Assembly (NCBI GenBank): GCA_026395915.1
Contig: JAPLXU010000013.1
Span: 16,428 to 80,427, forward strand
Origin: Candidatus Nomurabacteria bacterium
Lineage (GTDB): Bacteria; Patescibacteriota; Minisyncoccia; Phycocordibacterales; UBA9973
Length of the DNA: 64,000 nucleotides
Direction of reading: 5' to 3'
Shown: piece by piece, positions 5,461-46,127 of the stretch
How the letters are laid out: the number at the start of each line of letters is the position of its first letter
Position numbering within the stretch: the stretch's first letter is position 1
Notes under the pieces: generated by a model
Told to the model about the DNA's origin: nothing
What the model saw: only the letters and a program-made list of their open reading frames with translations
Databases searched by the model: none
Made by a program: the position numbers and the translations under genes

Positions 5461-5461
5461 C

Positions 5462-22156: not shown

Positions 22157-23848
22157 ATGCAAGCGCAAAATAAAAAATGTCAGAATTGCAAAAAGGACTT
22201 CACGATAGAGTCGGAAGATTTTAATTTCTATGAAAAAATCAAAGTGCCTGCGCCCTCTTGGTGCCCTGAGTGTCGAATGATGCGAAGATTGAATTGGCAG
22301 GGATATCGGATTTTGTACAAAAGGAAATGTGATTTCACGGGAGAGATGATGTTCAGCACGTATCATCAAGATTCTCCATATAAAGTCTATCGCCAAGATA
22401 TTTGGTGGTCAGACAAATGGGATCCGAAAAGTTACGGAAAAGATATCGATTGGAATAGACCGTTTCTTGAACAATTCAAAGAGTTGATGTTAGAAGTTCC
22501 ACACGCTTCTTTAGCCACTGGACATTCGACGATGATTCGTAGCGATTATTGTAATGCGGCCTCAGAGTGTAAAGATTGTTATTTATGTTTTCGCATCACT
22601 GGCGGAGAGGACAGCGCGTATTTGAATACCATTGTCGATGGCAAGCAGTCTTTTGATTGTTCTTTTTTGAATCATTCCGAACTTTGTTATGGATCTACAA
22701 ATATAAATAAATGCTATCAGACTTTCTTTTCACAAGATTGCGCGGAGTGCCATTCTATCTGGTTCTCGCGCGATTTAGTCGGATGTTCTGATTGCATAGG
22801 CTGTATCAATTTGCGTATGAAGCAATATTGCATTTTCAACAAGCAATACAGCAGGGAAGAGTACAAGAAAAAATTTATGGAATTCGATTTCGGAACACTG
22901 GCAAAAATACAAAATTTCCAAAAAGAGACGGAAGAATTCACGAAAAAAGAACCGAGAAGACAATTTCATGGAGTAAAAAACACCAATGTCTCCGGAGAAT
23001 ATATTTCCAATTCAAAAAATGTGCACGATTCGTACCTGTTTGCAAACGGGCTCGATTTGCGATACTGCCAATTTTTAAAAAACGGACCGGCATCCTCATC
23101 CTATGACTGGTCGTTTTTTGGCGACAACGCAGAATTGATGTATGAATGTTGTTGGTGCGGACTGGATTCTCATAATGTGAAATTCAGTTCATGGAATTAT
23201 TACAATCATGATGTCGAGTATTGTTTCGGTTGCCATCATTCCAGCAACCTGTTTGGCTGTGTGAGTTTGATAAAAGGGGAATATTGCATCTTAAACAAAC
23301 AGTATTCGAAAGAAGAATATGAAAAATTAGTTCTTAAAATAAAAAAGCAAATGGCAGAAATTCCATACGAAGATAGACTTGGCAGAGAATATCGTTATGG
23401 CGAAATGTTGCCTGCGGAACTTTCACCGTGGTCTTATAACGAAGCGACAGTCTTCGAATGGTTTCCTCTTAAAAAGGAAGAGGCGGTTGCGAAAGGTTTT
23501 AACTGGCGCGATCCGGATTTGCGCGAATACAAAGATGCGACTGTGGAAATCCCGAGTCATATAAAAGACGTGGAGGACGATGTTTTGCAAGCAATCTTGA
23601 AATGTGTCTCTTGTGGAAAAAATTATCAAATTATTCCAAAAGAATTGCAATTTTTGCGCCGTTTCAATCTTCCGATTTCAGACAATTGTCCACTTTGTCG
23701 AGATCGAGCTCGTATTAAACAACTGAACCCGATGCAGATTTATAATCGTGAATGCGCAAAATGTGGCAAAGAAATTAAGACTTCCTATGCACCTGACCGT
23801 CCGGAAGTAGTATACTGTGAAAAGTGTTACCAACAAGAAGTGTATTAG
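22157..23848 (+). CDS. Cys-rich multi-zinc-ribbon/CxxC-repeat protein, paralog A (unknown function)
   Basis: 563 aa. N-terminal double Zn ribbon KCQNCKK..FYEKIKVPAPSWCPECR..RKCDFTGE. Two internal halves each ending GC.NLR.K.YCIFNKQY.REEY. C-terminal ribbon ..LCPLCR...ECAKCGKEIKTSYAPDRPEVVYCEKCYQQEVY. Confidence 0.7.
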   Translation: MQAQNKKCQNCKKDFTIESEDFNFYEKIKVPAPSWCPECRMMRRLNWQGYRILYKRKCDFTGEMMFSTYHQDSPYKVYRQDIWWSDKWDPKSYGKDIDWNRPFLEQFKELMLEVPHASLATGHSTMIRSDYCNAASECKDCYLCFRITGGEDSAYLNTIVDGKQSFDCSFLNHSELCYGSTNINKCYQTFFSQDCAECHSIWFSRDLVGCSDCIGCINLRMKQYCIFNKQYSREEYKKKFMEFDFGTLAKIQNFQKETEEFTKKEPRRQFHGVKNTNVSGEYISNSKNVHDSYLFANGLDLRYCQFLKNGPASSSYDWSFFGDNAELMYECCWCGLDSHNVKFSSWNYYNHDVEYCFGCHHSSNLFGCVSLIKGEYCILNKQYSKEEYEKLVLKIKKQMAEIPYEDRLGREYRYGEMLPAELSPWSYNEATVFEWFPLKKEEAVAKGFNWRDPDLREYKDATVEIPSHIKDVEDDVLQAILKCVSCGKNYQIIPKELQFLRRFNLPISDNCPLCRDRARIKQLNPMQIYNRECAKCGKEIKTSYAPDRPEVVYCEKCYQQEVY

Positions 23849-23897
23849 GGAAATACATATTTAAGCCATGGCGTAAATATGTATTTGAAGTAAAAAC

Positions 23898-25643
23898 ATG
23901 AAACAAGAAACAAAAAAATGTCAGAATTGCAAAAAAGAATTCACGATAGAGTCGGAAGATTTTAATTTTTACGAAAAAATAAGAGTGCCCGCGCCGACTT
24001 TTTGTCCTGAATGCAGATTGATCAAGCGTCTGCTTATGCGCAACGAGCGCACTCTTTATAAGCGAAAATGCGATTCTTGCGGTGAAGAAAAAATACTAGT
24101 TTTCCCGAAAGAAAGCGAATATAAAGTCTATTGCCACACTTGTTTTTACAGCGATGATTGGGACGGGCAAACTTATGAAAAAGATTACGATTTTTCTAAA
24201 ACTTTTTTTGAGCAATACAAAGAGCTATATGACAGTGTTCCCAGATTGGGAATTGCTAAACAAGGCTTTCAAGTGAACAGCGAATATGTAAATCGCGCGA
24301 GCGACGTGAAAAATTGTTATCTTATTTTTGCAAGCAACGTCAACGAAGATTGTTATTATGGCGTGGCATATTGGGAATCAAAAAATTGCATGGATTGCTA
24401 TAACGCACGAAAATGTGAGAGGTGTTATGAGTGCATAGATTGTTATAAATGTAACGGCGTGAAGTATTCGAAAGAATGCAACGAATGCATCGATTCCTAT
24501 TTCTTGAACAATTGTCGAAACTGCCAAAATTGTTTCGGTTGCACGAATTTAAGAAATAAAAGTTACTGCATTTTTAACAAGCAATACACGAGGGAAGATT
24601 ATTTGGCGACAATTTCCGAACTCAAGCTTTCGAACGGGGCGGAAATAGAGAAAATCGAAAAAGAAGTGAAAAAGGAATCTCTAAATTACGTTGTACCTTG
24701 CATCGTGGAAAAACATTCGGTGAATGTTTCCGGCAATTGGATTGAGAATTCAAAAAATGTGCAGAATTCTTATAATTGCGACAGGGTGGAAGATGGAAAA
24801 TATTTGTTTGGTGTTTCTGACGCCAAGGACGCTATGGATAACACATATTGGGGAGCAGGAAGCGAGCTAATTTATGAATCGTCCAGTATCGGCAGGCAAT
24901 GTTCGTCGGTATTTTTCTCGAATGAATCTTGGGATCAATTGGTACGAGCTGAGTATTGCATCAATTGTTTTGCTTCCTCGGACTTGTTTGGTTGTGTGGG
25001 GCTTCGCAAAAAGCAGTATTGCATTTTGAATAAACAATATACGAAAGAAGAGTACGAAGAATTGGTTCCTAAAATCAAAGAGCAAATGAAAAATATGCCT
25101 TTTGTGGACAACGTCGATAGAACTATCAGTTATGGCGAATTTTTCCCATCTGACATGCTTCCTTTTGCCTATAATGAATCTATAGCGCAAGAATATTTTC
25201 CAAAAACCGAAAAGGAAGCGCTTGCCGAAGGATATCGCTGGAGAAAACCGGATACGAAAAATTATGTTCCGACAATGTCGGCCGATGAATTGCCGAAAAA
25301 TATTAAACTGGTCAACGACAATATCACAAGTGAAATAATAGCTTGCGCGCACGAAGGGAAGTGCAACGAGCAGTGCACAACCGCTTTCAAAATTGTTTTC
25401 AATGAATTGCAATTTTACCGCGCAAACAATATACCGCTTCCGAAACTTTGCCCGAATTGCCGTCACTACGAAAGATTACTGAAACGCCAGCCGATAAAAC
25501 TCTGGCACAGGCAATGCATGTGTGACAAAGAAAATCACATTCACGGCGCGAATGTTTGCGAAACAGAATTTGAAACTTCATACGCTCCAGACAGGCCGGA
25601 GATTGTTTATTGCGAAAAATGTTATCAACAAGAAGTGTATTGA
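23898..25643 (+). CDS. Cys-rich multi-zinc-ribbon/CxxC-repeat protein, paralog B (unknown function)
   Basis: 581 aa. Same architecture and identical C-terminal 22 aa (TSYAPDRPE.VYCEKCYQQEVY). Central run of C-x2-C units at 9-12 aa spacing. Confidence 0.7.
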   Translation: MKQETKKCQNCKKEFTIESEDFNFYEKIRVPAPTFCPECRLIKRLLMRNERTLYKRKCDSCGEEKILVFPKESEYKVYCHTCFYSDDWDGQTYEKDYDFSKTFFEQYKELYDSVPRLGIAKQGFQVNSEYVNRASDVKNCYLIFASNVNEDCYYGVAYWESKNCMDCYNARKCERCYECIDCYKCNGVKYSKECNECIDSYFLNNCRNCQNCFGCTNLRNKSYCIFNKQYTREDYLATISELKLSNGAEIEKIEKEVKKESLNYVVPCIVEKHSVNVSGNWIENSKNVQNSYNCDRVEDGKYLFGVSDAKDAMDNTYWGAGSELIYESSSIGRQCSSVFFSNESWDQLVRAEYCINCFASSDLFGCVGLRKKQYCILNKQYTKEEYEELVPKIKEQMKNMPFVDNVDRTISYGEFFPSDMLPFAYNESIAQEYFPKTEKEALAEGYRWRKPDTKNYVPTMSADELPKNIKLVNDNITSEIIACAHEGKCNEQCTTAFKIVFNELQFYRANNIPLPKLCPNCRHYERLLKRQPIKLWHRQCMCDKENHIHGANVCETEFETSYAPDRPEIVYCEKCYQQEVY

Positions 25644-27935: not shown

Positions 27936-28668
27936 AACTACGGAGGCGTTGCCTCCGTAGTTCGGCTACAACTAATTATTATCAAAGTTAAGCCATTCAA
28001 ATAGCTCTTTTTTGTGATCGTCAGGATTTTTAAAATATTCAGGGAATTGAGAAGGATTTATAATTTTGAACTTTTTGTCTTTATATTCTTTTAAACTTGA
28101 ATATGAGTAAGAAAAAACATATTTTAGTAAATTTGCTACATTTCGATTTTTATTTTCTTTCCAGTTTTTATCTATTAGTTTTGCCGGATTTAAATGTATG
28201 TATGAATAAAGATATTTTAAATAATTATCACTGTTTGCGTGGATTGATTTGAATACACTCTCGTACAATTTTCCGGTCCTCTCATATTTTTTATTGAAAT
28301 ACATTGAATAACTGGTCATAAGTTTAAGCATATATTTTGAGATTCCGTGTTCTATTTTCTCATGAACCAGAATGTGAAAATGATTAGGCATTAGACAATA
28401 TGTTCCAATATCAATAATAGTTTCCCCACGATCAAAATTCTCGCCAATATTTCTTAATTCTATACTTTTTGCTGTGTTGCAGATGTACATTAAAAATAGG
28501 AAGTGCTTATGGTCCTGTTCATCCAGAAATATTGTTCTTTTTTCTGTACCACGATTATATAAATGATAATACTCACCTGGAGCAAAAACTTGTTTTCGTA
28601 AAGTCATGTATAAAGTATAGCAAATAACTACTACGGAGGCAATGCCTCCGTATGTTCTCCGTATGTTA
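27936..28668. mobile_element. IS200/IS605-like minimal element (tnpA only) with subterminal hairpins
   Basis: Hairpins tacggaggc-gtt-gcctccgta (27939-27959) and tacggaggc-aat-gcctccgta (28632-28652) flank the HUH transposase gene. Tandem ctccgtatgtt x2 at 28647-28668. Confidence 0.6.
27972..28607 (-). CDS. tnpA: IS200/IS605-family HUH-Y1 transposase (RAYT-like TnpA)
   Basis: HuH motif NHFHILV. Catalytic Tyr region YLYSYIHLNP. 211 aa. Paralogous to 61795-62451. Confidence 0.7.
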   Translation of the reverse strand: MTLRKQVFAPGEYYHLYNRGTEKRTIFLDEQDHKHFLFLMYICNTAKSIELRNIGENFDRGETIIDIGTYCLMPNHFHILVHEKIEHGISKYMLKLMTSYSMYFNKKYERTGKLYESVFKSIHANSDNYLKYLYSYIHLNPAKLIDKNWKENKNRNVANLLKYVFSYSYSSLKEYKDKKFKIINPSQFPEYFKNPDDHKKELFEWLNFDNN

Positions 28669-32674: not shown

Positions 32675-33367
32675 ATGCGTTTTCATATAATCACAATTTT
32701 TCCGGAGATTTTCGATTCATACATTCATGAATCTATTTTAGGGCGGGCGATAAAAAACAAACTTGTAGAAATGAAATTTTACAATCCGCGAGATTTTGTT
32801 AAAGTGCCGAAGAATAAAAATCAGAATAATTATAAACCGGTGGATGACAGACCATATGGTGGGGGACCGGGCATGGTGATGAGAGCCGAGCCGATTTTGT
32901 CTGCCGTCGCCAAAGCTATGACGGACAAGAAAGTTAAAAAAGGCAAAGTTAAAATTATTATTTTTTCCCCCTCAGGAAAAAAGTTTGATACGGCTTACGC
33001 AAAAAAATCTGCGCAAAAATACACGGACATTGTCCTAATTTCTGGACGTTATGAAGGCATAGATGCCCGAGTGCAAAAGATTTTACGCGCGGAAGAAATT
33101 TCAATAGGCGATTATGTGCTGACTGGCGGTGAACTTCCAGCGATGGTTTTGATAGATTCTATTTCTCGTCAAATTCCGGGAGTTTTAGGCAAGTTTGAGT
33201 CTCTAGAAGAAGAAAGAGTTTCCAGTAGTGAAGTTTACACCCGTCCGGAAATTTTGAAATATCCCTTCGGCAAGGCTCAGGGTAAAAATTATAAAGTTCC
33301 AAAGGTCTTATTGTCAGGCAATCACAAGCTTATTGAAAACTGGAAAAAATCTAAAGGTAACTTGTAG
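32675..33367 (+). CDS. trmD: tRNA (guanine37-N1)-methyltransferase
   Basis: MRFHIITIFPEIF. SPOUT knot motifs (IISGRYEGIDARV; GDYVLTGGELPAMVLIDSI). Confidence 0.85.
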   Translation: MRFHIITIFPEIFDSYIHESILGRAIKNKLVEMKFYNPRDFVKVPKNKNQNNYKPVDDRPYGGGPGMVMRAEPILSAVAKAMTDKKVKKGKVKIIIFSPSGKKFDTAYAKKSAQKYTDIVLISGRYEGIDARVQKILRAEEISIGDYVLTGGELPAMVLIDSISRQIPGVLGKFESLEEERVSSSEVYTRPEILKYPFGKAQGKNYKVPKVLLSGNHKLIENWKKSKGNL

Positions 33368-33404
33368 TGTTTGTTTTTTGGAATTATGGTATGATAAAAA
33401 GCGT

Positions 33405-33809
33405 ATGATAATAAATGATGAGCAAAAAAATAGTGTCCAAACAGTGGCCGAAAAATACGGTCTGGATTTGTTGATGCTATTTGGTTCATACGCCGAAGAC
33501 AGGAATACAAAAAATAGCGATATTGACATTGGTTATCTAAAAAGTGAAAGGCTTTCTTTTGATGCCGAGATAGAACTTGCATCTCTATTTCAAACTATTT
33601 TCAAAATAAAACGGGCGGATATCGTGTATATTCCAAGCTCTTCGCCATTGTTTATGTATATGATTTTGCAAAAAGGCAAGATTTTATTTAAGCGAAATTT
33701 AACACTTTTTCCAAACATATACACATACGCGCTGAAACGATTTGAGGATAATAAACCTTTATATAAAGCGCGTTTTGATTATTTGTGCAAGCAATATCAA
33801 GTGGTATAA
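33405..33809 (+). CDS. mntA: Minimal nucleotidyltransferase (MntA-type antitoxin)
   Basis: GSYAEDRNTKNSDIDIGY (GS..DIDI NTase motif). Start placed at the internal ATG 33405 to avoid overlap with trmD. Confidence 0.65.
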   Translation: MIINDEQKNSVQTVAEKYGLDLLMLFGSYAEDRNTKNSDIDIGYLKSERLSFDAEIELASLFQTIFKIKRADIVYIPSSSPLFMYMILQKGKILFKRNLTLFPNIYTYALKRFEDNKPLYKARFDYLCKQYQVV

Positions 33810-33827
33810 TATAAAACATAAAAAAAT

Positions 33828-34250
33828 ATGACCATCAGTCAAATTTTTATAACAGAAAAAGCGCGTTTGTTAAAAGAGTACATTCAAAAATCCAAAGATA
33901 TTTTTGGGATGGTTTCAGATGATAAGATTATTCTTGGATCGGACAATGTCTATGTTTTAGAACGGATGTTTCAGCTTGCCGTGGAAGTGGTGATTGACAT
34001 TAATAATTATTTAATAAAAGAACTTGATATCGAACCGGCGGAAGATATAGAGGGGACATTTCAAACTTTGGCTAGGAAAGATATTCTGCCTATGGATTTT
34101 GCCGTTAAAATTAGTCCGACAGTAGGGTTGCGAAATAAACTGGTTCATGTTTACGAAAAAGTGGACAGAGCTTTTTTTGTTAGCAATTTCAGAAAAAATG
34201 TCGATGATTTTGATAAATATATTTCGTATGTTTTAAAATTTGTGAAATAA
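33828..34250 (+). CDS. hepT: HEPN-domain protein HepT (DUF86) toxin
   Basis: Rx4HxY motif RNKLVHVY. 140 aa. Immediately downstream of the MNT gene. Confidence 0.65.
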   Translation: MTISQIFITEKARLLKEYIQKSKDIFGMVSDDKIILGSDNVYVLERMFQLAVEVVIDINNYLIKELDIEPAEDIEGTFQTLARKDILPMDFAVKISPTVGLRNKLVHVYEKVDRAFFVSNFRKNVDDFDKYISYVLKFVK

Positions 34251-34287
34251 AAATATGTATGATTCAAAAAATATGTCAGCATTTTAC

Positions 34288-34308
34288 GAGAGAGAGAGAG
34301 AGAGAGAG
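34288..34308. repeat. (GA)10 dinucleotide microsatellite
   Basis: gagagagagagagagagagag, lying between in-frame ATGs (34255/34273) and the surface-protein ORF start. Confidence 0.9.
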
Positions 34309-34361
34309 TAAATCTCGCTCCGCGGAAGTTTAATTTTGGTTTCGTTAAGACCATTGCGGTT

Positions 34362-37300
34362 TTGTTTTGCTTTGGATTTTTGCTTTTGGCTTTAGTGGCT
34401 GTTGCCTTTGTAAAATTTTCTCCGGTATCTGCTACAGTATCATCTACCTCTGCAACCGTTCTCGCCAAATCCGATCTCCTCCAATTCACTTCGCATGGTC
34501 AAGTTATCGGTTTCCAAAACACAGGCTTTATCCTCGCATCTCCCACACACATGCTCAAAATTGATTTTTTAAATTCCAACAACATCACGCCAGTATCAGA
34601 TAGCGCGCCAACCACACCTTCCACTTCTACCACCTTACCTTCCACAACAGAAAAAGCCGCTCCGCTTACAAAAGTTACTTACTCCAATGTTTGGAATGGC
34701 ATAGATATTGTTTATGAAGCCAACAAAGATTCTCTGATGAAAAGCACCTATTATGTTGATATCACAAAGCAAGGAGTTTCTCCAGACAGTATCAAGCTTC
34801 ACTACAACCGTCCTCTTTCTTTGGATAAAAATAAAAGTCTCACAATCAAATATGACATTGGCACAATCACCGAATCAGCTCCTCTCGCTTGGCAAATAAT
34901 AAATAACAAAAAAGTTTTTGTACCAATTTCTTACAAACTTATAAACGAAAATGATATCGGATTTACTCTTGGAGCTTACACTCCAAATATTCCAATAGTC
35001 ATCGATCCCACTTATACATGGAATCCTTTTTTGGGAGGAAGCGGGAGTGATACTGGCCACGGGATTGCGGTAGACGTTAATGGAAACGTTTATGTCAGTG
35101 GTTATAGTAGTTCCACATGGGGTTCACCTGTGCGAGCATATACTGATGGTGGTGATGCCTTTGTAGCAAAACTCAGTAGCACAGGAATTCTTATCTGGAA
35201 CACCTTTTTGGGTGGAAATGGAGAAGATTATGGTTTTGGTGTCGCCGTAGATACAAACGGAAATGTTTATGCTACTGGATACAGTAATGATACATGGGGG
35301 GTAACACCAGTGCGATCATATACTTCAAGCACTGATGCTTTTGTCGTTAAACTTGATAGTGCGGGCGTATTAACTTGGAATACTTTCTTGGGAGGTAGTA
35401 GAGAGGATCAAGGAAATGGAATCGCCGTAGACATCAGCGGAAATGTTTATGTTACCGGAACTACTAGTGGCGCCACTTGGGGTTCACCTGTAAAAGCATA
35501 CCTGTCAACTCAAGATGCTTTTGCCGCTAAAATCAGTAGTGCTGGCGCTCTCACATGGAATACTTTTGTGGGTAGGAGTAGTACTGTTGGTCAAGGAATA
35601 GCAGTTGATACTAGTGGTAATGTTTACATTGCTGGAAGTGTTGGTGGTGGCTCCGGTTTTGCCTCTATTGTTAGAGCATATACCTCATCTAATGATGGCT
35701 TTGTTGTAAAATTCGCAAATAATGGCGCTCTCACGTGGACCTCTTTTTTGGGTGGAAATGGAGGTGATGAAAGTTACGCAATTGCAGTTGACACGATTGG
35801 AAATATTTACGTAACTGGACTCAGCGACACCACTTGGGGTTCACCAGTGCGAGCGTATTATGGTTCTAGTTACGATATTTGGGCAGCTAAGCTAGATACT
35901 AATGGCGCTCTTACGTGGAATACTTTTTTAGGCGATAGTGGTAATGACTATGGCTACGGGATCGCTATCGACATTAATGGAAACGTATATGTCGTTGGAT
36001 ACACTTCAGCCACTTGGGGTTCACCAGTGAGAACATACTCTTCCGGTCTTGATGTCTTCGCCGCTAAACTTGATGGTGTTGGTACTCTTGTATGGAATAC
36101 TTTTTTGGGAGGAAATGAGACCGATGTTGGTTACGGTATCGCTATCGACATTAATGGAAATGTTTATATTGGCGGGGCTGGTCCCACTACCTGGGAATCT
36201 CCAACAATTGCTCATGATTTAGGAGCCAACACAGATGCCTTTGTAGCCAAGTTAACCTCCCTTGGCGCTCTCACCACCATCATCGTTCCCACAATCACTC
36301 CAACAGCAGGAAGTAACGGTGCAATATCTCCAAGTGTTCCAACTGATGTAACAAGCGGTGGCAGCCAATCCTTCACCCTCACCCCATCAGCTCACTACCA
36401 CGTAGCCGATGTATTAGTCGACAGTGTCTCTCAAGGGGCAATAACTTCATACACTTTTTCAAATGTCACAGGAGATCACGCAATCTCTGCCACCTTTGCC
36501 ATAGACACCCAAACAGTTACCTTCAACAAAAACGGTGGTGACACAGAAGCAAGTCCAACAACCAGAACAACTAATTACAATACAACAGTAACACTACCAA
36601 CAGCGCCAACAAAGACAGGTTATACTTTCTCTGGCTGGAACACAGCAGCCAATGGTTCAGGCACTGCATTCATAGGAAGCACTGCAGTTGTTGCAGATGT
36701 TACTGTATATGCTCAATGGACTATTAATAGTTATACTTTGACCTACACCGCCGGCTCTCATGGTTCAATCACAGGCACTTCTCCTCAAACAATCAATTAC
36801 GGTTCAAATGGTTCAGAAGTTACTGCTGTCCCAAATGCTCATTATCACTTTGTAAACTGGTCTGACTCTTCCATTACTAACCCAAGAACAGACACAAACA
36901 TAACTGACAATCTCTCTTTCTCAGCTAACTTTGCCATAACTACCCACACCCTCACTCCATCCTCAGATTCAAACGGTTCAATCAGTCCTTCCACATCAAC
37001 CACAATAAATGACGGTGACTCAGAAACCTTCACCATCATCCCAAACAACGGTTACCGCATCTCTGACATTCAAATAGACGGTATATCTCAAGGAACAATT
37101 GCTTCCTACACTTTCTCAAACGTTACAGATAATCACACTATCTCTGTCACCTTTGCTCGTCGTCCATCCGGTCGTCCCATAATTTCAATAACTCCACCGA
37201 CTCCAGTAGTTGCAACCCCTTCTCCTTCGACAAGCTCAGGACAAGCAACCACTCCGCCTCCTTACACAAATACAACAACAGTTTACAACTTCGGTACAAA

Positions 37301-37514
37301 AACTTTAAAGAATGGTAGCACTGGTGATGCAGTCAAAGAACTTCAAAGATTCTTGAATGCCAAGCTGAATCTTAATCTAACCATTGATGGCAAACTAGGT
37401 CCAAAGACTATTCTTGTCATCAAAGCATGGCAGAAAGCTCATGGTTTAACTCCTGATGGACTTATTGGAGCAAAGACGAAGGAGAGGATGAAAATCGAAG
37501 CGGAAAAATTCTAA
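34362..37514 (+). CDS. Large cell-surface protein: signal peptide, SBBP/beta-propeller repeats, Listeria-Bacteroides (InlB B-type) repeats, C-terminal peptidoglycan-binding domain
   Basis: ORF as listed starts at TTG (no in-frame ATG). More than 12 repeats of ..TW(G/N)SPVRAY.(S)..DAFV(A/V)KL..(G/A)(A/V)LTWNTFLGG. 'TGYTFSGWNTAANGSG...VYAQWT' repeat. C-terminus NGSTGDAVKELQRFLN...DGKLGPKT (PG_binding_1-like). Confidence 0.7.
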   Translation: MFCFGFLLLALVAVAFVKFSPVSATVSSTSATVLAKSDLLQFTSHGQVIGFQNTGFILASPTHMLKIDFLNSNNITPVSDSAPTTPSTSTTLPSTTEKAAPLTKVTYSNVWNGIDIVYEANKDSLMKSTYYVDITKQGVSPDSIKLHYNRPLSLDKNKSLTIKYDIGTITESAPLAWQIINNKKVFVPISYKLINENDIGFTLGAYTPNIPIVIDPTYTWNPFLGGSGSDTGHGIAVDVNGNVYVSGYSSSTWGSPVRAYTDGGDAFVAKLSSTGILIWNTFLGGNGEDYGFGVAVDTNGNVYATGYSNDTWGVTPVRSYTSSTDAFVVKLDSAGVLTWNTFLGGSREDQGNGIAVDISGNVYVTGTTSGATWGSPVKAYLSTQDAFAAKISSAGALTWNTFVGRSSTVGQGIAVDTSGNVYIAGSVGGGSGFASIVRAYTSSNDGFVVKFANNGALTWTSFLGGNGGDESYAIAVDTIGNIYVTGLSDTTWGSPVRAYYGSSYDIWAAKLDTNGALTWNTFLGDSGNDYGYGIAIDINGNVYVVGYTSATWGSPVRTYSSGLDVFAAKLDGVGTLVWNTFLGGNETDVGYGIAIDINGNVYIGGAGPTTWESPTIAHDLGANTDAFVAKLTSLGALTTIIVPTITPTAGSNGAISPSVPTDVTSGGSQSFTLTPSAHYHVADVLVDSVSQGAITSYTFSNVTGDHAISATFAIDTQTVTFNKNGGDTEASPTTRTTNYNTTVTLPTAPTKTGYTFSGWNTAANGSGTAFIGSTAVVADVTVYAQWTINSYTLTYTAGSHGSITGTSPQTINYGSNGSEVTAVPNAHYHFVNWSDSSITNPRTDTNITDNLSFSANFAITTHTLTPSSDSNGSISPSTSTTINDGDSETFTIIPNNGYRISDIQIDGISQGTIASYTFSNVTDNHTISVTFARRPSGRPIISITPPTPVVATPSPSTSSGQATTPPPYTNTTTVYNFGTKTLKNGSTGDAVKELQRFLNAKLNLNLTIDGKLGPKTILVIKAWQKAHGLTPDGLIGAKTKERMKIEAEKF

Positions 37515-37931: not shown

Positions 37932-40900
37932 ATGCATACAATAGCCAAGCGTCCGAAGAAGTATTTTTCTAGATACAAGAAACCTCTCGTCGAATTTCCG
38001 AATTTGATCGAGGCACAATTAAAAAGTTTTAAATGGTTGGTGGAGCAGGGAATCGGAGAAGTGTTCAAGGAATTTTCTCCCATTAGCGATTACTCCACAA
38101 AAAAGTTTCAGCTAGAATTCACTTCTTTCTCTCTTTCTGAATGCAAGTATGATGAAAATAATGCGAAGGTAAATAAACTTTCGTATCAAGGTCTCTTGAA
38201 AGCTCGAGTAAAATTGACGAACAAAGTTTTGGGCACTGTGAAAGAGCAGGAAATTTTCATGTCGGAACTTCCTCTCATGACGAATCACGGAACTTTTATC
38301 ATCAACGGTGTAGAACGCGTTATCGTTCCGCAACTCGCGCGAAGTTTTGGAGTTTTCTTTACAGAATCCGAAAGCAAAGGCAACAGATATTTTGGCGCCA
38401 AGATTATTCCTGCGCGAGGTGTTTGGATTGAGATAGAGTCGGAAGCTGATGGAGCCATTTATATAAGAATAGACAAGAAAAGAAAATTCCCTGCGACAGC
38501 GCTTCTGCGAGCTATGGGTTATGAGAGTAATGAGGATATTTTGAAGGCTTTTTCCACGAATTCTATTTTCGAAGAAACGATAAAAACTTGTTTGGCGAAA
38601 GACGGAGTTAAAAGTCTGAATGATTCGTATGTAGAAATCTACAAACGCTTGAGAGATGGAGATATGGCTACAGCGGAAAACGCAAAAGAATTTATCAATT
38701 CTTTGTTTACACCTGAGCGTTACGATCTTTCTCCTGTCGGCCGTTTCAGATTCAACCAACGTTTCGGGAAGCCTATGGATGAAGTGGCGCTCGCTCGTCG
38801 AACTATTTCCAAAGAAGATTTAGCGACGGTGATTATGAATATCATCACTTTGAATAATACTCCCGACGCAAAGAGCGATGATATAGATCACTTGGGTCAG
38901 AGACGTGTAAGATTTGTCGGCGAAATACTTCAACAGAAAGTTCGCACTGGTATGATGCAGATCAAGAGAAACATTCAAGACAGAATGTCTATTATCGACG
39001 TTGATACTGCGATGCCTATCGCCATTATCAACCAACGTCCGCTTCAAGCTCGAATAAAAGAATTTTTCACCACGAACCAGCTTTCCCAATTTATGGCGCA
39101 AGAAAATGTGCTTTACGAAATAGAACATTTGCGCACTCTTTCGGCTTTGGGACCCGGAGGTCTCACTCGCGAGCGCGCAGGACTCGAAGTCCGCGATGTG
39201 CATCCTTCTCACTATGGAAGAGTTTGTCCTATTCACACTCCTGAAGGTCCGAACATTGGGCTCATTTTGCACCTTTCCACTTACGCTAAAATAAATGATT
39301 TTGGAATTATTGAAACTCCATATGTAAAAGTTTCAAAAGGAAAAATCACCGGCGAAGTAGTTTACTTAAACGCGCTTGAGGAAGAAAAGTACAATATCGC
39401 GCATGCCGGAATTCCTTATGATGAAAGTGGAAGAATCACAGAAGAAAAAGTAGAAGCCAGAATCAAGACAGAGCCGGGTCAAGTTTCCCGCGATGAAGTT
39501 GATTTCATTGACGTCTCTCCCAACCAAGCTTTTTCGATAGCGACTTCAATGATTCCGTTTTTGGAACACAACAATGCAAACAGAGCATTGATGGGAAGCA
39601 ACATGCAGAAGCAGGCAGTGCCTTGCGTGTTGCCCGAAGCTCCTCTTGTCGCCACAGGCATAGAAGAATTAGCGGCTCGCGATGGAGGACGTTTGGTTAT
39701 CGCTGAAGAAGATGGTCTAATCTCTTATTTAGATGCGAAAAAAATAACTATCAAAGGGAAAAAAGAGCAGACTTATCCTCTTGTTAATTTTATGAGGAAT
39801 AACAACTTCGCTGTATTTCATCAGCGTCCGTTGGTGAATGTCGGTGATAAGGTGAAGAAGGGCGATGTGTTGGCGGATACCAGTAGCACAGTAGGTGGGC
39901 AAATTTCTCTAGGGCAAAATATTTTTGTTGCCTTTCTGTCTTGGTCTGGATCAACTTATGAAGATGCAATAGTTGTTTCTGAACGTTTAGTGAAAAAGAG
40001 TAAATTTACGTCGGTCTATGTCGAAGAATTCACTTGCGTTGTTCGTGATACGAAACTCGGACCTGAAATCACTACTCGAGATATACCAAACGTCGGGGAA
40101 CTCAAACTGAAAGATCTAGACGAAGATGGCATTGTTCGCATTGGCGCGGAAGTTAGAGAAAATGATATTTTGGTTGGTAAGATCACTCCAAAAGGTGAGA
40201 CAGAACTTACTCCAGAAGAGCGACTCTTGCGTTCGATTTTTGCCGAGAAGGCGCGAGATGTCAAAGACACATCACTCCGAGTGGAACACGGAAAACGCGG
40301 ACGCATTATTGGTGTGAAGATTTTTTCTCGCGATTTGGGACATACGCTTGAAGCGGGAATCATCAAAAAAATTGTGATTGAAGTGGCTCAGATTAGAAAT
40401 ATTTCGGTTGGAGACAAACTTTCCGGACGACATGGAAACAAAGGAGTTATCTCAAGAATTTTGCCTGAAGAAGATATGCCTTACATGGCAGATGGCACGC
40501 CGGTTGATATTATTTTGTCGCCACTTGGTGTTCCTTCTCGTATGAACTTGGGACAAATATTGGAAATGCATCTTGGTATGGCGGCAAACAGTCTCGGTTA
40601 TCAAGCTATCGTTCCGCCGTTTTTGGGAGCTAAACACGAGGAAATCAGTCAAGAATTGGAAAAAGCCGGATTGCCAGCAAATGGAAAAGTGAAACTTTTT
40701 GACGGACGCACCGGAGAAGCTTTTGAACAAGATGTCGCTGTCGGTTATATGTACATGTTGAAACTTCATCACATGGTGGAAGACAAGATTCACATGCGTT
40801 CTATTGGACCTTATTCTTTAATCACTCAACAGCCTCTCGGCGGAAAAGCTCAAGGCGGTGGACAGAGATTCGGGGAAATGGAAGTCTGGGCGCTCGAAGG

Positions 40901-41102
40901 TTACGGCGCGGCTTATACTTTGCGTGAAATGCTTACTATTAAGTCTGACGATATTCTAGGTCGTTCGCAGACTTTTGATTCTATTATCAAAAATGAAATG
41001 ATTCGACCGCCAAATTCACCAGCTTCGTTCAATGTGCTCCTAAATTACTTGCGAGGGTTGGCGCTTGATGTGAATTTAAAGAAAGGCGTAGACGAGAAAT
41101 AA
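37932..41102 (+). CDS. rpoB: DNA-directed RNA polymerase subunit beta
   Basis: Full-length conserved RpoB (…GPGGLTRERAGLEVRDVHPSHYGRVCPIHTPEGPNIGL…). Confidence 0.95.
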   Translation: MHTIAKRPKKYFSRYKKPLVEFPNLIEAQLKSFKWLVEQGIGEVFKEFSPISDYSTKKFQLEFTSFSLSECKYDENNAKVNKLSYQGLLKARVKLTNKVLGTVKEQEIFMSELPLMTNHGTFIINGVERVIVPQLARSFGVFFTESESKGNRYFGAKIIPARGVWIEIESEADGAIYIRIDKKRKFPATALLRAMGYESNEDILKAFSTNSIFEETIKTCLAKDGVKSLNDSYVEIYKRLRDGDMATAENAKEFINSLFTPERYDLSPVGRFRFNQRFGKPMDEVALARRTISKEDLATVIMNIITLNNTPDAKSDDIDHLGQRRVRFVGEILQQKVRTGMMQIKRNIQDRMSIIDVDTAMPIAIINQRPLQARIKEFFTTNQLSQFMAQENVLYEIEHLRTLSALGPGGLTRERAGLEVRDVHPSHYGRVCPIHTPEGPNIGLILHLSTYAKINDFGIIETPYVKVSKGKITGEVVYLNALEEEKYNIAHAGIPYDESGRITEEKVEARIKTEPGQVSRDEVDFIDVSPNQAFSIATSMIPFLEHNNANRALMGSNMQKQAVPCVLPEAPLVATGIEELAARDGGRLVIAEEDGLISYLDAKKITIKGKKEQTYPLVNFMRNNNFAVFHQRPLVNVGDKVKKGDVLADTSSTVGGQISLGQNIFVAFLSWSGSTYEDAIVVSERLVKKSKFTSVYVEEFTCVVRDTKLGPEITTRDIPNVGELKLKDLDEDGIVRIGAEVRENDILVGKITPKGETELTPEERLLRSIFAEKARDVKDTSLRVEHGKRGRIIGVKIFSRDLGHTLEAGIIKKIVIEVAQIRNISVGDKLSGRHGNKGVISRILPEEDMPYMADGTPVDIILSPLGVPSRMNLGQILEMHLGMAANSLGYQAIVPPFLGAKHEEISQELEKAGLPANGKVKLFDGRTGEAFEQDVAVGYMYMLKLHHMVEDKIHMRSIGPYSLITQQPLGGKAQGGGQRFGEMEVWALEGYGAAYTLREMLTIKSDDILGRSQTFDSIIKNEMIRPPNSPASFNVLLNYLRGLALDVNLKKGVDEK

Positions 41103-41105
41103 AAT

Positions 41106-41936
41106 ATGGACAAAAATCAATTGGCTATTTTTGAAAACTTTAAAATAAGAAGGCATTATAACGAGAAAGAAGAAGTCTGGTATTTTTCAGTGGTTGATAT
41201 TATTGGAGCGCTTTTAGATCAGAATGATTTTCAAAAATCTAGAAGTTATTGGAAAAAGCTGGCACAACGACTCAGAGAGGAGGGAAGTCAAGTGGTGACA
41301 AATTGTCACCGGTTGAAAATGGTGGCAGCTGATGGAAAAATGAGAGAAACTGATGTAGCTAGTGTAGAAACTATTTTACGCATTATTCAAACAGTGCCAA
41401 GTAAAAGAGCTGAACCATTTAAGCTCTGGCTGGCGAAAGTTGGTTATGAAAGATTGCAGGAAATGGCTGATCCGGAAAAATCAATAAACAGAGCAAGAGA
41501 AAATTGGCAAAAACATGGACGTAGCAATCAATGGATACAGCAAAGAATGATGGGGCAGGAAATTAGAAACAAGCTCACGGATTATTGGAAAAATAATGAA
41601 GTAAAAGAAAAAAAAGAATATGCCATTTTGACGAATATTATTCACGAAGAATGGAGCGGTGTTTCTGTCCAAAGTCATAAAAAAATGAAGGGGCTAAAAA
41701 CTCAAAACTTGCGCGATCATATGTCCGACGCGGAATTGGTTTTTACCGCTTTGGCTGAATTATCCACCAGACAAATTGCTGAAACGATGGAAACAAAAGG
41801 ATTGGAAGAAAATAAAATTCCAGCAATAAAAGGTGGAAGCATTGCCAAAAATGCGCGAAAATCATTGGAGGCAAAAACTGGAAAGCCAGTGGTAACCGGC
41901 AAAAATTTTTTATTAGCAAGTGAAGTTAAAAAGTAA
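41106..41936 (+). CDS. Bro-N domain / DinD-like (DNA-damage-inducible protein D family) protein inserted between rpoB and rpoC
   Basis: N-terminus IFENFKIRRHYNEKEEVWYFSVVDIIGAL = Bro-N fold motif. Remainder (…RAEPFKLWLAKVGYERL…) resembles DinD-like proteins. Confidence 0.55.
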   Translation: MDKNQLAIFENFKIRRHYNEKEEVWYFSVVDIIGALLDQNDFQKSRSYWKKLAQRLREEGSQVVTNCHRLKMVAADGKMRETDVASVETILRIIQTVPSKRAEPFKLWLAKVGYERLQEMADPEKSINRARENWQKHGRSNQWIQQRMMGQEIRNKLTDYWKNNEVKEKKEYAILTNIIHEEWSGVSVQSHKKMKGLKTQNLRDHMSDAELVFTALAELSTRQIAETMETKGLEENKIPAIKGGSIAKNARKSLEAKTGKPVVTGKNFLLASEVKK

Positions 41937-41940
41937 ACAT

Positions 41941-44900
41941 ATGAAAACTTTAAACACAACTGAATTTGATTCCATCGGATTGCGTCTCGCTTCGCCAGAG
42001 CAGATACAGGAATGGTCTTTTGGAGAAGTGACCAAACCGGAAACCATAAATTATCGCACGGGAAGGAGCGAACGTGGAGGTCTCTTTGACGAAAAAATAT
42101 TCGGGCCGGAAAAAGACTACGAATGTTACTGTGGAAAGTATCGCCGAATTCGTTACAAGGATATTATTTGCGAAAAATGCGGAGTGGAAGTTACGCGTTC
42201 GATTGTTCGTCGTGAACGCATGGGACATATCGAGCTTTCTACACCGGTATCGCATATTTGGTTCTTGCGTGGAGTGCCTTCTCGCATGAGCATCTTGCTC
42301 AATATCTCCGTGATTGATCTTGAAAAGGTTATTTATTTTGCCGGCTATATAATCACCAAAGTTCATGAGGAAGAAAAACAGTCAATAATCACAGGCTTGG
42401 ACAAAGAATATAAAGCCAAGCTAAAAAATGCGGCTGATGATGACATCAAAGAGAAGCTGAAAAATTTGCTTTCCGTCACCAAAAAAGAAATTGGAGAAAT
42501 CTACGAAGGAAAAGTTTTGAATGAAATTTCTTTCCATCATTATTCTCTGAAATACGGAACTTGTTTTGAAGCGAATATCGGCGCCGAAGCTATTTACTCA
42601 ATTTTCAAAAATCTTGACTTGAATAAATTAAAAGCTCACACCGAAAAAATGTTGGAGAAGGCGAGCGCTGCGGAAAAAGACAAATTACAGAAGAGGCTTT
42701 CTCTCATTCGCGCTATGACTTATGCTGGGATCAGACCGGAATGGATGTTCCTTACGATTATTCCTGTCATTCCTCCAGTTTTGCGTCCGATGGTGGCTCT
42801 CGATGGAGGCAGACATGCTACTTCTGATTTGAACGATCTTTACCGCAGAGTTATAAACAGAAATAATCGTTTGAAAAAATTAAAAGAGATCAACGCGCCG
42901 GACGTAATCTTGCGAAATGAAAAAAGAATCATCCAAGAAGCTGTCGACGCTTTGATTGATAACTCAATCGCGAAACAAAATGATTCTGCGGCGATGAGTC
43001 AATCTCAGAAACGCCCACTAAAATCTCTTTCGGACAATTTGAAATCTAAACAAGGTCTTTTTCGCCAAAATTTGCTCGGAAAAAGAGTAGACTATTCTGG
43101 ACGTTCGGTTATTGTTGTTGGTCCCGAACTCAAACTCAATCAATGCGGTTTGCCGAAGCATATGGCGCTCGAACTTTTCCGACCATTCGTGATTTCAAAA
43201 ATCTTGCAGGCGGAATTGGCGTTTAACATTCGCGGGGCAAATAAGCTCATCGAAGAACGCACCCCCGAAGTTTGGGCGATGCTCGAAGAAGTTATTGCGG
43301 GAAAGTATGTGCTTTTAAACCGCGCGCCGACCTTGCACAGATTGGGTATTCAAGCTTTTAATCCAATTCTGATTGAAGGAAATGCTATTCAAGTGCATCC
43401 TCTTGTTTGTCAGGCTTTTAACGCTGATTTCGATGGAGACCAAATGGCTGTCTATGTTCCTCTTCTCGAAGAAGCGCAGTCTGAAGCGAAAGAATTAATG
43501 GCTGCGAATAAAAATCTGCTCAAACCTCAAAACGGAGAGCCGATCGTAAACCCTCGCATGGACATGGTGCTCGGAAGCTATTGGATGACAAAATCAATGG
43601 AAGGAGAAAAAGGGGAGGGAAAATATTTTTCGCGACCTAATGTGGCTATTAGCGCCTATGAATATGGGATCACTTCTTTGCGCGCGAAAGTAAAAGTCTT
43701 AGCGGATACAGCTAAAGTAAAATACAAGAAATTTGATGGGGGAATTTTTGAAACTTCTGCCGGCAAACTTCTCTTTAATAGTATTTTGCCAGACGATTTT
43801 CCTTACGTGGGCGATGAAATGACTCAGGACAGACTGATTGCGCTTCTCGATGAACTCATAGTGCATTACGGCGTGGACGCTACTCCTAAAATCTTGGACA
43901 AGATAAAGGCGTTTGGTTTCAAATATTCGACAGTTTCTGGCACCACTTGGGGACTCGATAATGTTTCTGTGTCTCTCGACAAGCCAAAAATTATTGCGCA
44001 AGGTAAAAAATTGGAAGAAGAAATTATCTCTCAATGGAGGGAAGGTCTTTTGTCTGAAGAAGAGAAGTATCAAAAAATTATTGAAATTTGGACTCACACA
44101 AAAAAGGATTTGGAAAAAATTCTACCAAAAACATTGGATAAAAAAAGTTCCACTTACGATCTTTTCACTTCGAAAGCTAGAGGCACGATGTCTAGCTTGA
44201 TGCAAATGACAGGCATGATCGGACTTATCCAGAACAACCAAGGCAAGACTTTGGAGTTCCCGATTATTCCTTGTTATCAAGAAGGACTTTCTCCGATCGA
44301 GTATTTCGTCATCACACACGGAGCTCGTAAAGGTGCTTCTGATACCGCGCTCAATACCGCAAAAGCCGGATATTTGACGCGAAGACTGGTTGACGTTGCG
44401 CAGGATGTTGTCATTACGGAAATAGATTGTGGTACAAAAGAAGGAAGAATGGTCAGAAGCGAAGATATTTCCGGAATAAAAATTCCACTTTCAAAAAATA
44501 TTCGTGGACGAGTTTTGGCAGCCGATCTAAAAGACAAGGACGGCAAAGTGGTTTACAAAAAAGGATTTTTGGTCACCAAAGAAGAAGCTTACAATATCGA
44601 AGGCGCTGGTTTCACAGAAGTTTTTGTCCGTTCTCCACTAACCTGTGAGACTATTCACGGCCTCTGCGTCAATTGTTACGGACTTGATTTGGGACGCAAT
44701 CATCTTGTCGAGCTCGGTGAAGCAGTCGGTATCATTGCCGCTCAAGCTATCGGCGAACCGGGTACTCAGCTTACTCTTCGCACGTTCCATGCTGGAGGCG
44801 TGGCGGGAACTGATATCACGACTGGTTTGCCTCGCGTTGAAGAAATATTTGAAAGAAGAGTTCCCAAAAATCCTGCTATTATTTCTGAGACAGACGGAGA

Positions 44901-45579
44901 AGTTGTTGAGATAAAAGTCAAAGATGAGAAAGAGAAAATCATCAAAGTATTGTCCGATATTAAAGCCGACGGGAAAGGGGGTGATAAGAAAAATGAAATG
45001 GAATATATTGTGGCTTTTCATCGAACGCCGACAGTTAAAGTTGGCGACCACGTGAAAGCGGGCGACCTTTTGACTGACGGATCGGCTGATATTGCTGAGA
45101 TCTTCAAATTCGGTGGCAAGGAATTGGTTGAAAGATATATCATTCGAGAAATAAATAAAGTTTACGAATTGCAGAGCGCTTCGATTAGCAGAAAGCACAC
45201 GGAAATAATCATCCGCCAGATGTTCTCACGTCGAAAAATAAAAGATGCGGGTATCACCAATTTTTCGATTGGTGATATTGTTGAGAATACTGCATTTATA
45301 GAGGAAAATCAAAGAGTTGCTGGGTTAGATAAAAAAATAACTGAAGATGAAATTGGAGGACAGGCAAAAGCAGAAACAGTTGTACTCGGCATTACCGAAG
45401 TCTCGCTTCGTACAAAGAGCTGGCTCTCTGCCGCTTCGTTCCAAAACACAAATCGTGTTCTTATTGAAAACGCAATAAAAGGGGGAGTAGACGACCTACG
45501 AGGATTGAAAGAAAATGTCATAATCGGGCGACTCATTCCGGCCGGAACTGGGTTTAAAAATAAGATAAAGGCTGAATAA
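41941..45579 (+). CDS. rpoC: DNA-directed RNA polymerase subunit beta'
   Basis: Zn-binding CxxC..CxxC, NADFDGD catalytic motif, trigger loop, C-terminal domains. Start placed at ATG 41941 (the listed ORF 41920 start overlaps the upstream gene). Confidence 0.95.
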
Positions 45580-45614: not shown

Positions 45615-46127
45615 GTGGTGAAGGTTGAAAAGGGGAAATGGATATTTATGCAAAAAGATTTTGATAAATGGAACACAGAGAAAAAAGCTGTAGATGCAAA
45701 AGTTGTAAATACAGAACTTTTCTTTCATGCTCGGGAAATTTGGTGGTGTAGCGCAGGATTAAATGTTGGAGTAGAAGCAGATGGAAAACACGAAAACTTT
45801 GAAAGGCCGATGCTAATTGTAAAAAAGTTTAATGCGGATATGGTATGGGCGCTTCCACTTACTACGCAAGGAAGAAAAAATAAGTATTATTATAAGTTGA
45901 ATCACGAAGAAGTAAAATCGTGGGTTGTTCTGTCACAAATAAAAACAATAAGCACAAAAAGATTTTTGCGAAAGGTAGGATCTATTTCTGAGTCAGATTT
46001 CAAGGAAGTAATTTTGAGGTTGCAAAAGTTGCTAAAAATCGAAAACCCCCTTACGGGGGCTTTCTCGGAGGCCGAAGCCACTAATACAAGAAGTATAAAC
46101 GGCAATCAAAACAAAGTCAAGCGATAG
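45615..46127 (+). CDS. PemK/MazF-family protein, paralog 2 (orphan). The C-terminal 30 aa are probably read-through into a GC-hairpin repeat
   Basis: REIWWCSAGLNVGVEADGKHENFERPMLIVKKFNADMVWALPLTT...WVVLSQIKTISTKRFL is paralogous to 11092-11484. Homology ends near ..ILRLQKLL, after which the ORF runs through repeat copy 46041-46071. Confidence 0.55.
   Translation: MVKVEKGKWIFMQKDFDKWNTEKKAVDAKVVNTELFFHAREIWWCSAGLNVGVEADGKHENFERPMLIVKKFNADMVWALPLTTQGRKNKYYYKLNHEEVKSWVVLSQIKTISTKRFLRKVGSISESDFKEVILRLQKLLKIENPLTGAFSEAEATNTRSINGNQNKVKR
46041..46071. repeat. GC-rich hairpin repeat copy (ccccc-ttac-ggggg + tttctcggagg)
   Basis: cgaaaacccccttacgggggctttctcggag, inside the 3' end of the MazF-like ORF. 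Confidence 0.5.

Follow-up and report, generated by a model that had tools for sequence, protein, structure and literature searches.

In pathogens such as Helicobacter, Neisseria, Haemophilus, Campylobacter, and Mycoplasma, microsatellite slippage is a textbook route to phase variation. The bacteria of the Candidate Phyla Radiation (CPR) are believed to spend their lives attached to other cells, and little is known of their surface variation apart from diversity-generating retroelements and in-frame repeats. The closest described system to the locus in this report is oipA (hopH) of Helicobacter pylori, in which CT repeats in the signal-peptide coding region form an established switch; units are gained or lost by slipped-strand mispairing, which shifts the frame between On and Off, and the Off alleles stop soon after the tract (PMC10564699). 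Enrichment of repeats toward the N terminus is a recognized signature of phase variation (PMC3315296). Among CPR bacteria, slipped-strand mispairing has been proposed for a hypervariable PTD-repeat surface gene of Gracilibacterium (Sieber et al. 2019; PMC6851277). Our full-text literature search found no description of SSR phase variation in CPR/Patescibacteria, in agreement with the first-pass annotation of this DNA, which had called such switches uncharacterized in the group. The mechanism considered here is therefore known, of the oipA-like kind, and the lineage is new.

The features of the locus, which lies in a 64-kb stretch of Nomurabacteria DNA (the window), are collected in Table 1. 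The (GA)10G tract is the sole dinucleotide repeat of at least 5 units in the window, as found by a repeat scan and by TRF, and none of 100 dinucleotide-preserving shuffles matched it with 3 mismatches allowed. Perfect dinucleotide SSRs are taken to be hypermutable from roughly 5 to 6 units upward, a range that includes this tract. Its codons alternate between Glu and Arg, and it is free of stops in all frames. Following a TGA at 34260, the large frame runs open through 1084 codons (34263 to 37514), and its first ATG, GTG, or TTG is the TTG at 34362, as the first-pass annotation had read it.

Table 1. Features of the GA-tract locus, in window coordinates
Feature	Position	Strand	Basis and remarks
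Promoter-like site TTGATA-18 nt-TAAAAT	34210..34239	+	Within HepT 3' end; consensus scan, 10/12 matches
ATG 34255	34255..34257	+	4 nt past HepT stop; possible surface-gene start if tract in frame
ATG 34273	34273..34275	+	Second ATG, sharing the frame of ATG 34255; likely ancestral start
(GA)10G microsatellite	34288-34308	+	(GA)10 at 34288-34307, then G 34308; uninterrupted
Putative signal-peptide coding region	34308..34433	+	Translation in ORF frame
n-region VNLAPRKFNFGFVKT	34308-34352	+	Translation
TAA	34309..34311	+	Terminates ATG-initiated reading in the GA10 state; product is the 18-aa peptide MYDSKNMSAFYERERERE
Hydrophobic core IAVLFCFGFLLLALVAVAFV	34353-34412	+	Translation
CDS MCX6752260.1	34362..37514	+	GenBank annotation, 1050 aa, TTG start; identical to P0001
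c-region KFSPVSA	34413-34433	+	Translation

The number of units gates the frame: the gene is ON with n = 9, 12, or 15 and OFF with n = 10 or 11. Fusion of the ATGs to the large ORF requires the loss of one GA unit or the gain of two. With GA9 or GA12 in silico, either ATG is fused to the ORF, giving products of 1079 to 1087 aa; across alleles with n = 3, 6, 9, 12, 15, and 18 the products are 1075 to 1091 aa, and with n = 10 translation ends at the TAA at 34309. The in-silico alleles show a 5' in-frame repeat toggling between full-length and truncated product. The first-pass annotation had predicted the same unit arithmetic, and its positions for both ATGs, the tract, G 34308, and the TAA were all correct; its GA9 fusion sequence had one Glu too many and should read MSAFYERERER-VNLAPRKF.... 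An alternative genetic code, with TGA 34260 read as sense, was considered and set aside, the frame then reaching only TAA 34248 with no start codon gained. A reverse-strand ORF across the tract (34151-34489), which overlaps both HepT and the surface gene and was called as a gene on only one short Logan contig, was treated as spurious.

The protein encoded by the large frame has a DUF7948 domain (PF25778, 105 bits against a cut-off of 27), seven SBBP beta-propeller repeats (PF06739, 145 bits over the 7 repeats against a cut-off of 20.5), List_Bact_rpt / InlB B-repeats, and a C-terminal PG_binding_1 domain, with further Pfam matches to Flg_new and Flg_new_2. Both DUF7948 and SBBP score above their gathering thresholds, which places the protein in the SBBP/DUF7948 secreted family, whose homologues number in the thousands across many phyla. 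The beta-propeller, InlB-B-repeat, and PG-binding calls made from the sequence at first pass were recovered by Pfam, and DUF7948 is additional to them. From the hydrophobic core with its VSA, the propeller, the InlB-type repeats, and PG_binding_1, we infer that the product would be surface exposed or an interaction molecule.

The locus resembles oipA (hopH) and the sabA/hopZ-type genes of H. pylori in having a dinucleotide repeat in the 5' part of the gene, which codes for the signal peptide of a surface protein, CT being AG/GA on the opposite strand. The likeness is one of mechanism only: the protein here is of the unrelated DUF7948/SBBP/PG_binding_1 type, and the Pfam scan found no Hop outer-membrane domain in it. 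The repeat here encodes Glu-Arg in the n-region, whereas that of oipA encodes Leu-Ser in the core, and the organism is a free-living lake CPR bacterium rather than a pathogen. Hundreds of H. pylori isolates document On/Off polymorphism, compared to GA10 alone in three assemblies here. The opa genes of Neisseria (CTCTT), the tetranucleotide genes of Haemophilus, and the poly-G genes of Campylobacter likewise carry a 5' coding repeat in a surface-structure gene and give reversible null mutations, but they occur as many loci (a phasome), often in multigene families. The window has one such tract in its 64 kb and no sign of a multigene phasome; a search of the window for a multigene expression site found no second copy of the 5' leader, and there are no mismatch-repair genes among the window genes scanned. 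The Gracilibacterium PTD gene is likewise a CPR gene for a surface-type protein with a perfect tandem repeat, but its repeat is a 9-mer that keeps the frame, so that the length and sequence of the protein vary with no on/off frame switch. Finally, the order of signal peptide, LLQFTS motif/DUF7948, and SBBP repeats is shared with other SBBP/DUF7948 secreted proteins, and among the loci of this kind that were read, this is the sole case in which a microsatellite separates start codon and signal peptide.

Three assemblies cross the tract: the MAG and the Logan contigs L068 and L072, which are independent assemblies of other runs and samples with flanks 100% identical to the MAG. All three have GA10, the OFF length, with no ON or other non-GA10 allele among them. 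The Lac Pavin runs with this population include SRR20698638, ERR15302179, ERR15302205, ERR15302213, and ERR15302223. The 100%-identical population also occurs in SRR25046532, SRR25046533, and others of the series ERR15302175-ERR15302224, and shared samples suggest that the MAG itself probably stems from the Lac Pavin project PRJNA852163. An exact-flank scan of JGI metagenome contigs for other tract lengths gave 0 matches. The contig index has no record of the TTG-start product (P0001), the GTG-start product, or the rpoB product, so that L068 and L072 are the only long contigs found there to cross the tract. The protein collection holds no ON-length protein, and P0001 is a singleton cluster in it; a second protein search, with the DUF7948 region, returned 2 matches only and missed P0001 itself, and negatives from that index are therefore not informative. 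Of the phase-variation switch proposed at first pass, the anatomy stands, but the property that defines phase variation, length polymorphism with ON alleles, did not appear in the assemblies that cross the tract.

Three of the five contigs that reach the tract break at its edges, once at 34308 and twice at 34287. The end of L070 at exactly 34308 is what would be expected from a k=31 graph containing GA10 and a longer allele; changes in unit number do not account for the two ends at 34287. A variant at 34288 may lie behind these two, or a second haplotype that joins at 34258, such as one without the MNT/HepT cassette. These edge-breaking contigs hint, ambiguously, at heterogeneity. Repeated +1-unit stutter or a phasing error is an alternative source for the L070 end.

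The best reading of the locus, which we hold with moderate confidence, is a slipped-strand contingency locus caught in the OFF state. Its main rival is a recent frameshift pseudogene, in which the tract has gained one unit or is otherwise stuck at 10 and an everyday loss-of-function mutation at a mutational hot spot has silenced a dispensable gene, with no reversible switch being maintained; we consider this unlikely but a serious alternative. The OFF length in three assemblies from different samples is in keeping with it, as are the orthologues. The repeat is absent from the orthologous position in L001/L058, L002, L056, and L059 (about 5 informative loci), around which synteny is not conserved. 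The first-pass annotation had named such absence from related genomes among the findings that would count against a switch, and it does lean that way, but taken alone it carries little weight, since repeats of contingency loci are often confined to one lineage. The L001/L058 orthologue has a non-repeat frameshift that two assemblies share, and in L002 the gene is split; these disruptions point to gene loss or remodelling as common in CPR, and the surface-protein family may simply be decaying there. Against a pseudogene, no second lesion occurs in the 3.2-kb frame 3' of the tract and its domains all score well, and therefore any inactivation must either have happened very recently or be open to reversal. 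An uninterrupted, perfect run of 10 units is inherently unstable, so that reversion is mechanistically expected, and the edge breaks described above also count against this rival. A poly-G10 run upstream of a Staskawiczbacteria SBBP gene was considered as a second switch in the family and rejected, its length being identical in 4/4 assemblies.

A second alternative, which we regard as improbable, is that the TTG at 34362 or a GTG at 34395 is the start in use, the tract then lying ungated in a 5' leader with a short uORF, MYDSKNMSAFYERERERE. The TTG is the start annotated by GenBank/PGAP, and an uncharged signal peptide has some precedent: the L059 homologue group has no charged residues before the core, and 2 of 108 homologues are without an n-region. 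The start contexts argue otherwise. ATG 34255 scores 4.93, which ranks it within the top 1% of all start-like triplets and, measured against real genes, at the 84th percentile, and ATG 34273 scores 4.19, compared to -6.76 for the TTG, lower than 98% of the window genes, nearly all of which are ATG-started. The A-rich start context typical of the genome is present at both ATGs and absent at the TTG. The first-pass annotation was right that no Shine-Dalgarno sequence precedes the TTG, but the point has no weight as an argument, because no gene in the window has one; short or absent leaders are the rule there. The candidate promoter at the HepT 3' end would start a transcript about 7 to 9 nt before ATG 34255, the start being predicted near 34246-34250. 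The start given by an alternative caller on contig L068 is the GTG at 34395, which would truncate the hydrophobic core, and the disagreement between PGAP and this caller is a sign that the frame has no good start of its own. An in-frame ATT at 34281 is not favored as a start, with a context score of -0.79 and ATT starts being very rare.

The codons upstream of the TTG have the character of coding sequence. Those at 34308-34361 belong to the putative signal-peptide region and precede the annotated start, and the N termini of the orthologues align past the TTG and back to ATG 34273; on the ATG side, MSAF... lines up with MPKF... and MSS... in the orthologues from L001 and L002, with M1 invariant. 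The segment RKFNFGFVKTI matches RGFLFGFFKII of the L001 orthologue, an equal score arising in 123 of 5000 shuffles. Compared with the orthologue n-region, the 18 codons 5' of the TTG score 31 in the ORF frame and 15 and 13 in the others. Lys or Arg precedes the core in 106 of the 108 homologues, and the TTG-initiated product has no such charged n-region. Two claims of the first reading, that the TTG product would be without a positively charged n-region and that the ATG fusion has a signal-peptide layout of n-region, core, and VSA, hold up on translation and on comparison with orthologue and homologue N termini. Because of the A-rich context, the promoter-like site, the orthologue alignment, and the family-wide charged n-region, we take the ATGs to be the native start. 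GenBank has probably placed the CDS start wrongly at TTG 34362, and we recommend treating the locus as frame-variable.

The remaining alternatives leave the gene intact or its product constitutive. A sequencing or assembly artefact, with a true tract of 9 or 12 units, has in its favor that dinucleotide repeats stutter in PCR-based libraries and that the source is a short-read metagenome bin; it is nonetheless very unlikely, because three independent assemblies share GA10, two of them from other runs with identical flanks, and the 21-nt tract is far below read length. The first reading had itself raised this objection. Recoding, in which the ribosome or RNA polymerase would slip on the GA run (+2/-1) and make full-length protein constitutively from the GA10 template, is scarcely credible: the tract is open and repetitive in three frames, and tRNA-Glu on GAG could conceivably re-pair two bases downstream, but a slippery heptamer of the X XXY YYZ form is absent, no stimulatory RNA structure is seen in the 176-nt region (z = 0.16 versus shuffles), the tract region has no Rfam match, the orthologues have no tract, so that a programmed ribosomal frameshift site was rejected, and to our knowledge neither efficient +2 shifts nor dinucleotide transcriptional slippage is an established mechanism.

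As a contingency locus, the system might operate as follows. The native start of the gene, which encodes a secreted beta-propeller protein associated with the cell wall, would be ATG 34273, possibly 34255, with transcription probably from the promoter-like site in the last part of HepT, the gene upstream. Among the codons of the charged n-region of the signal peptide would lie the (GA)n tract, where slipped-strand mispairing at replication could add or remove GA units. With n = 9, 12, 15, etc., the ATG would be in frame and the cell would make and export the full pre-protein; at n = 10 or 11, translation would end after 18 to 27 codons, leaving no protein or a trace from poor internal starts. 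The sampled lake population would be predominantly GA10 OFF. We infer that tract length changes often enough to be useful, that such changes can revert, and that the switching is adaptive; for example, an episymbiont pressed by its host or by phages might thereby vary one of its surface or attachment proteins.

If the tract is fixed at 10, the locus is merely a fresh pseudogene of little interest. We tentatively suggest, short of favoring it outright, that this is the first SSR contingency locus in the Candidate Phyla Radiation, by which Nomurabacteria of a stratified lake switch a PG-binding propeller protein stochastically through (GA)n. Such switching would plausibly alter how the bacteria attach to host cells or phages or are recognized by them. 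If true, slipped-strand bet-hedging would extend beyond host-associated pathogens to environmental ultrasmall episymbionts. If verified, an on/off switch that acts on a propeller protein anchored in the wall would single out a molecule important for the attachment interaction of CPR cells, and the tract, easily scored by counting reads, would serve as a marker of bet-hedging at the population level in uncultured bacteria.

The (GA)10G tract lies at 34288-34308, in the order TAA(34248) AAAT ATG(34255) TAT GAT TCA AAA AAT ATG(34273) TCA GCA TTT TAC (GA)10 G TAA(34309), and a script check bore out the coordinates that the first-pass annotation had assigned to the ATGs, the tract, and the stop. 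It is the sole dinucleotide repeat with at least five units in the 64-kb window, whose G+C content is 38%, and the TRF entry for it gives 10.5 perfect copies; a 20-nt GA run had no match in dinucleotide-preserving shuffles, even when three mismatches were allowed. The tract encodes alternating Glu and Arg, and all of its frames are free of stops. The frame of the ATGs ends at TAA 34309, and the large frame, open from 34263 to 37514, has TTG 34362 as its earliest ATG, GTG, or TTG, giving 1050 aa. Reading TGA 34260 as sense gives no additional start codon. Alleles constructed in silico behaved as had been proposed, in that loss of one GA unit or gain of two fuses either ATG to the large frame: nine units yield 1079 or 1085 aa and twelve yield 1081 or 1087 aa, every unit number divisible by 3 being ON (ATG in frame with the large frame).

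Over its 1050 aa the product shows no difference from GenBank MCX6752260.1, [quoted passage not shown] whose contig measures 86 kb; clustering at 90% identity leaves it as a singleton. Pfam bore out the beta-propeller, InlB B-repeat, and PG-binding domains previously called from the sequence; its hits are DUF7948, seven SBBP beta-propeller repeats, one Listeria-Bacteroides repeat, two divergent InlB B-repeats, and a C-terminal PG_binding_1 domain. Housekeeping genes flank the gene, with TrmD upstream and rpoB and rpoC downstream, and directly upstream is an MNT (nucleotidyltransferase)/HepT toxin-antitoxin pair at 33333-34250, the HepT stop being 4 nt from ATG 34255. The HepT coding sequence also contains what is likely to be the promoter of the surface gene. 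The best-supported mechanism, to which we give about an even chance, is that slipped-strand mispairing in the signal-peptide codons would gate translation, the present allele being OFF.

Few orthologues exist, and the comparison of orthologous loci suggested earlier was run, with the GA repeat found in none of those examined (L001/L058, L002, L056, and L059). L001 and L058 represent one organism assembled twice, and their protein is 53-60% identical to that of the window. This closest orthologue (SESB01011762/SESG01032029) carries the same 1-nt frameshift in both assemblies, in non-repetitive sequence, and the frameshift parts the signal peptide and an LLQFTS segment from the remainder of the protein. 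In L002, a Lac Pavin Staskawiczbacteria MAG, two separate genes, one for DUF7948 and one for SBBP, make up the split orthologue, each with its own signal peptide; the ATG of the SBBP gene lies 6 nt after its TGATATAAT box, and the nearby homopolymer has 10 G in 4/4 assemblies crossing it. The gene is intact in L056 and L059. The family is often remodeled or broken in CPR genomes, so that a plain-pseudogene reading stays alive, in which the frameshift would be recent and effectively fixed; we regard this as unlikely. That the 3.2-kb frame is intact and that a perfect tract of 10 units is inherently unstable both favor reversibility; the lack of any length other than GA10, and of the repeat in the orthologues, calls for caution.

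A start-context position weight matrix, trained on 43 gene starts in the window, separated the upstream ATGs from TTG 34362 (Table). A Shine-Dalgarno sequence is absent before every gene in the window; gene starts are nearly all ATG, A-rich upstream, and often have a TATAAT box 6-12 nt before them, contexts which suggest that leaderless or very-short-leader mRNAs are widespread here. Examples of such starts are at 14407, 25664, 33828, 61715(-), and 62451(-). A promoter-like TTGATA-18-TAAAAT at 34210-34239 lies 16 nt before ATG 34255. The alignment of the closest orthologues extends upstream of TTG 34362: the N-termini of L001 (MPKFNRILGATKMRGFLFGFFKII...) and L002 (MSSRNKKIFSSRGLWF...) align with MSAFYERERERVNLAPRKFNFGFVKTI..., with an invariant first Met column, and the local match RKFNFGFVKTI/RGFLFGFFKII scores 31, a value reached by 123/5000 shuffles, against 15 and 13 for the remaining two frames of the same DNA. 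Lys or Arg precedes the hydrophobic core in 106 of the 108 homologues that have a Met start and a recognizable core. From context, promoter, orthologue alignment, and n-region as four independent lines, we conclude that the upstream ATGs are the probable native start, the gene beginning at ATG 34273 or 34255 and the assembled sequence being frame-shifted within the tract. Use of the poor downstream start TTG 34362, called by PGAP, is improbable in view of its score and of a product (MFCFGFLLL...) without any n-region. The Logan-contig caller chose GTG 34395, and such disagreement is the expected outcome when no proper in-frame start exists.

Positions of features, in window coordinates unless a contig is named
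Feature	Position	Remarks
ATG 34255	34255	score 4.93; top 1% of start-like triplets; 84th percentile of genes
ATG 34273	34273	score 4.19; top 1% of start-like triplets; 74th percentile of genes
TTG 34362	34362	score -6.76; below 98% of genes
Contig L068, window end	36399	crosses tract, GA10
Contig L072, window end	34570	crosses tract, GA10
Contig L070, window end	34308	stops on tract's final base
Contig L069, window end	34287	stops one base before tract
Contig L071, window end	34287	stops one base before tract
Shared orthologue frameshift	L001 about 400-425; L058 about 1131-1167	
G10 homopolymer	L002 3703-3712 (= L061 3760-3769)	directly upstream of second gene's TGATATAAT box
Release-factor gene, peptide chain, 293 aa	5462-6343	directly after tRNA-Thr (5388-5461)
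rpoB	37932-41102	
BRO-N-domain ORF	41106-41936	between rpoB and rpoC, overlapping rpoC start
rpoC	41920-45579	
MazF/PemK-like toxin gene	45615-46127	after rpoC

With HepT, TrmD, and MNT as anchors, 12 contigs (L068-L072, L074-L079, and L082) were obtained from Logan assemblies that are independent and derive from other runs (SRR20698638, SRR2504653x, and ERR153021xx-022xx); some of these run series also include a Lac Pavin Staskawiczbacteria MAG. The 11 that were mapped back to the window are 100% identical to it except for one mismatch; five contigs reach the tract, and GA10 is the sole length observed (MAG, L068, and L072). Its recurrence in independent assemblies indicates that it is not an assembly slip, countering the artefact that the first-pass annotation had raised as a refutation, and we consider a sequencing or assembly artefact very improbable. 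Recoding across the tract is less probable still, since the region has no canonical slippery heptamer, no Rfam match, and an RNA fold no better than shuffles (z = 0.16).

Unitig ends were predicted by a k=31 de Bruijn simulation of allele mixtures. The left unitig stops at 34308 when GA10 is mixed with a longer allele, as L070 does, and at 34306 when GA10 is mixed with GA9; the L070 end could also arise from recurrent +1-unit stutter or phasing error. For a stop at 34287, either position 34288 must vary or another sequence, differing in its left context, must join at 34258; GA-unit changes do not account for the L069 and L071 ends, which imply such a variant or a co-occurring second haplotype. 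A haplotype without the MNT/HepT cassette would be one example with different sequence left of 34258. The other right-hand ends (33390, 33700, 33779, 33812, 33817, 34038, 34570, and 36399) fall in ordinary sequence and none coincide. The tract-edge ends hint at heterogeneity, suggestively rather than as a demonstration; JGI metagenome contigs gave no exact-flank match and the protein collection no ON-length protein.

Elsewhere in the window, the BRO-N domain of the ORF between rpoB and rpoC represents a family characteristic of phages and mobile elements. The release factor aligns to the PCRF domain only from profile position 86 onward and so is N-terminally short. At the sigma-70 (rpoD-like) gene, which starts at 51040, an A-rich low-complexity 38-nt tract (51043-51080) would encode a Lys-rich N-terminus. 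Two adjacent ORFs (563 and 581 aa) without a Pfam match and a nearby IS200-like Y1 transposase gene are placed at 22157-25643 and 27972-28607(-).

In full-text literature searches, no paper connected phase-variable repeats to Patescibacteria or CPR, in agreement with the earlier view that such switches are uncharacterized there. The closest case is a Gracilibacterium surface gene with an in-frame 9-mer repeat (PMC6851277), whereas the GA tract is frame-changing. In H. pylori, the On/Off status of oipA and related genes is set by CT repeats located where the signal peptide is encoded (PMC10564699), the same mechanism as proposed here in proteins that are not homologous by Pfam; contingency loci with N-terminal repeats as a general class (PMC3315296) likewise match in mechanism and not in product (Pfam). 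The tract locus is a candidate repeat contingency locus, whose mechanism is already known and whose lineage is new.
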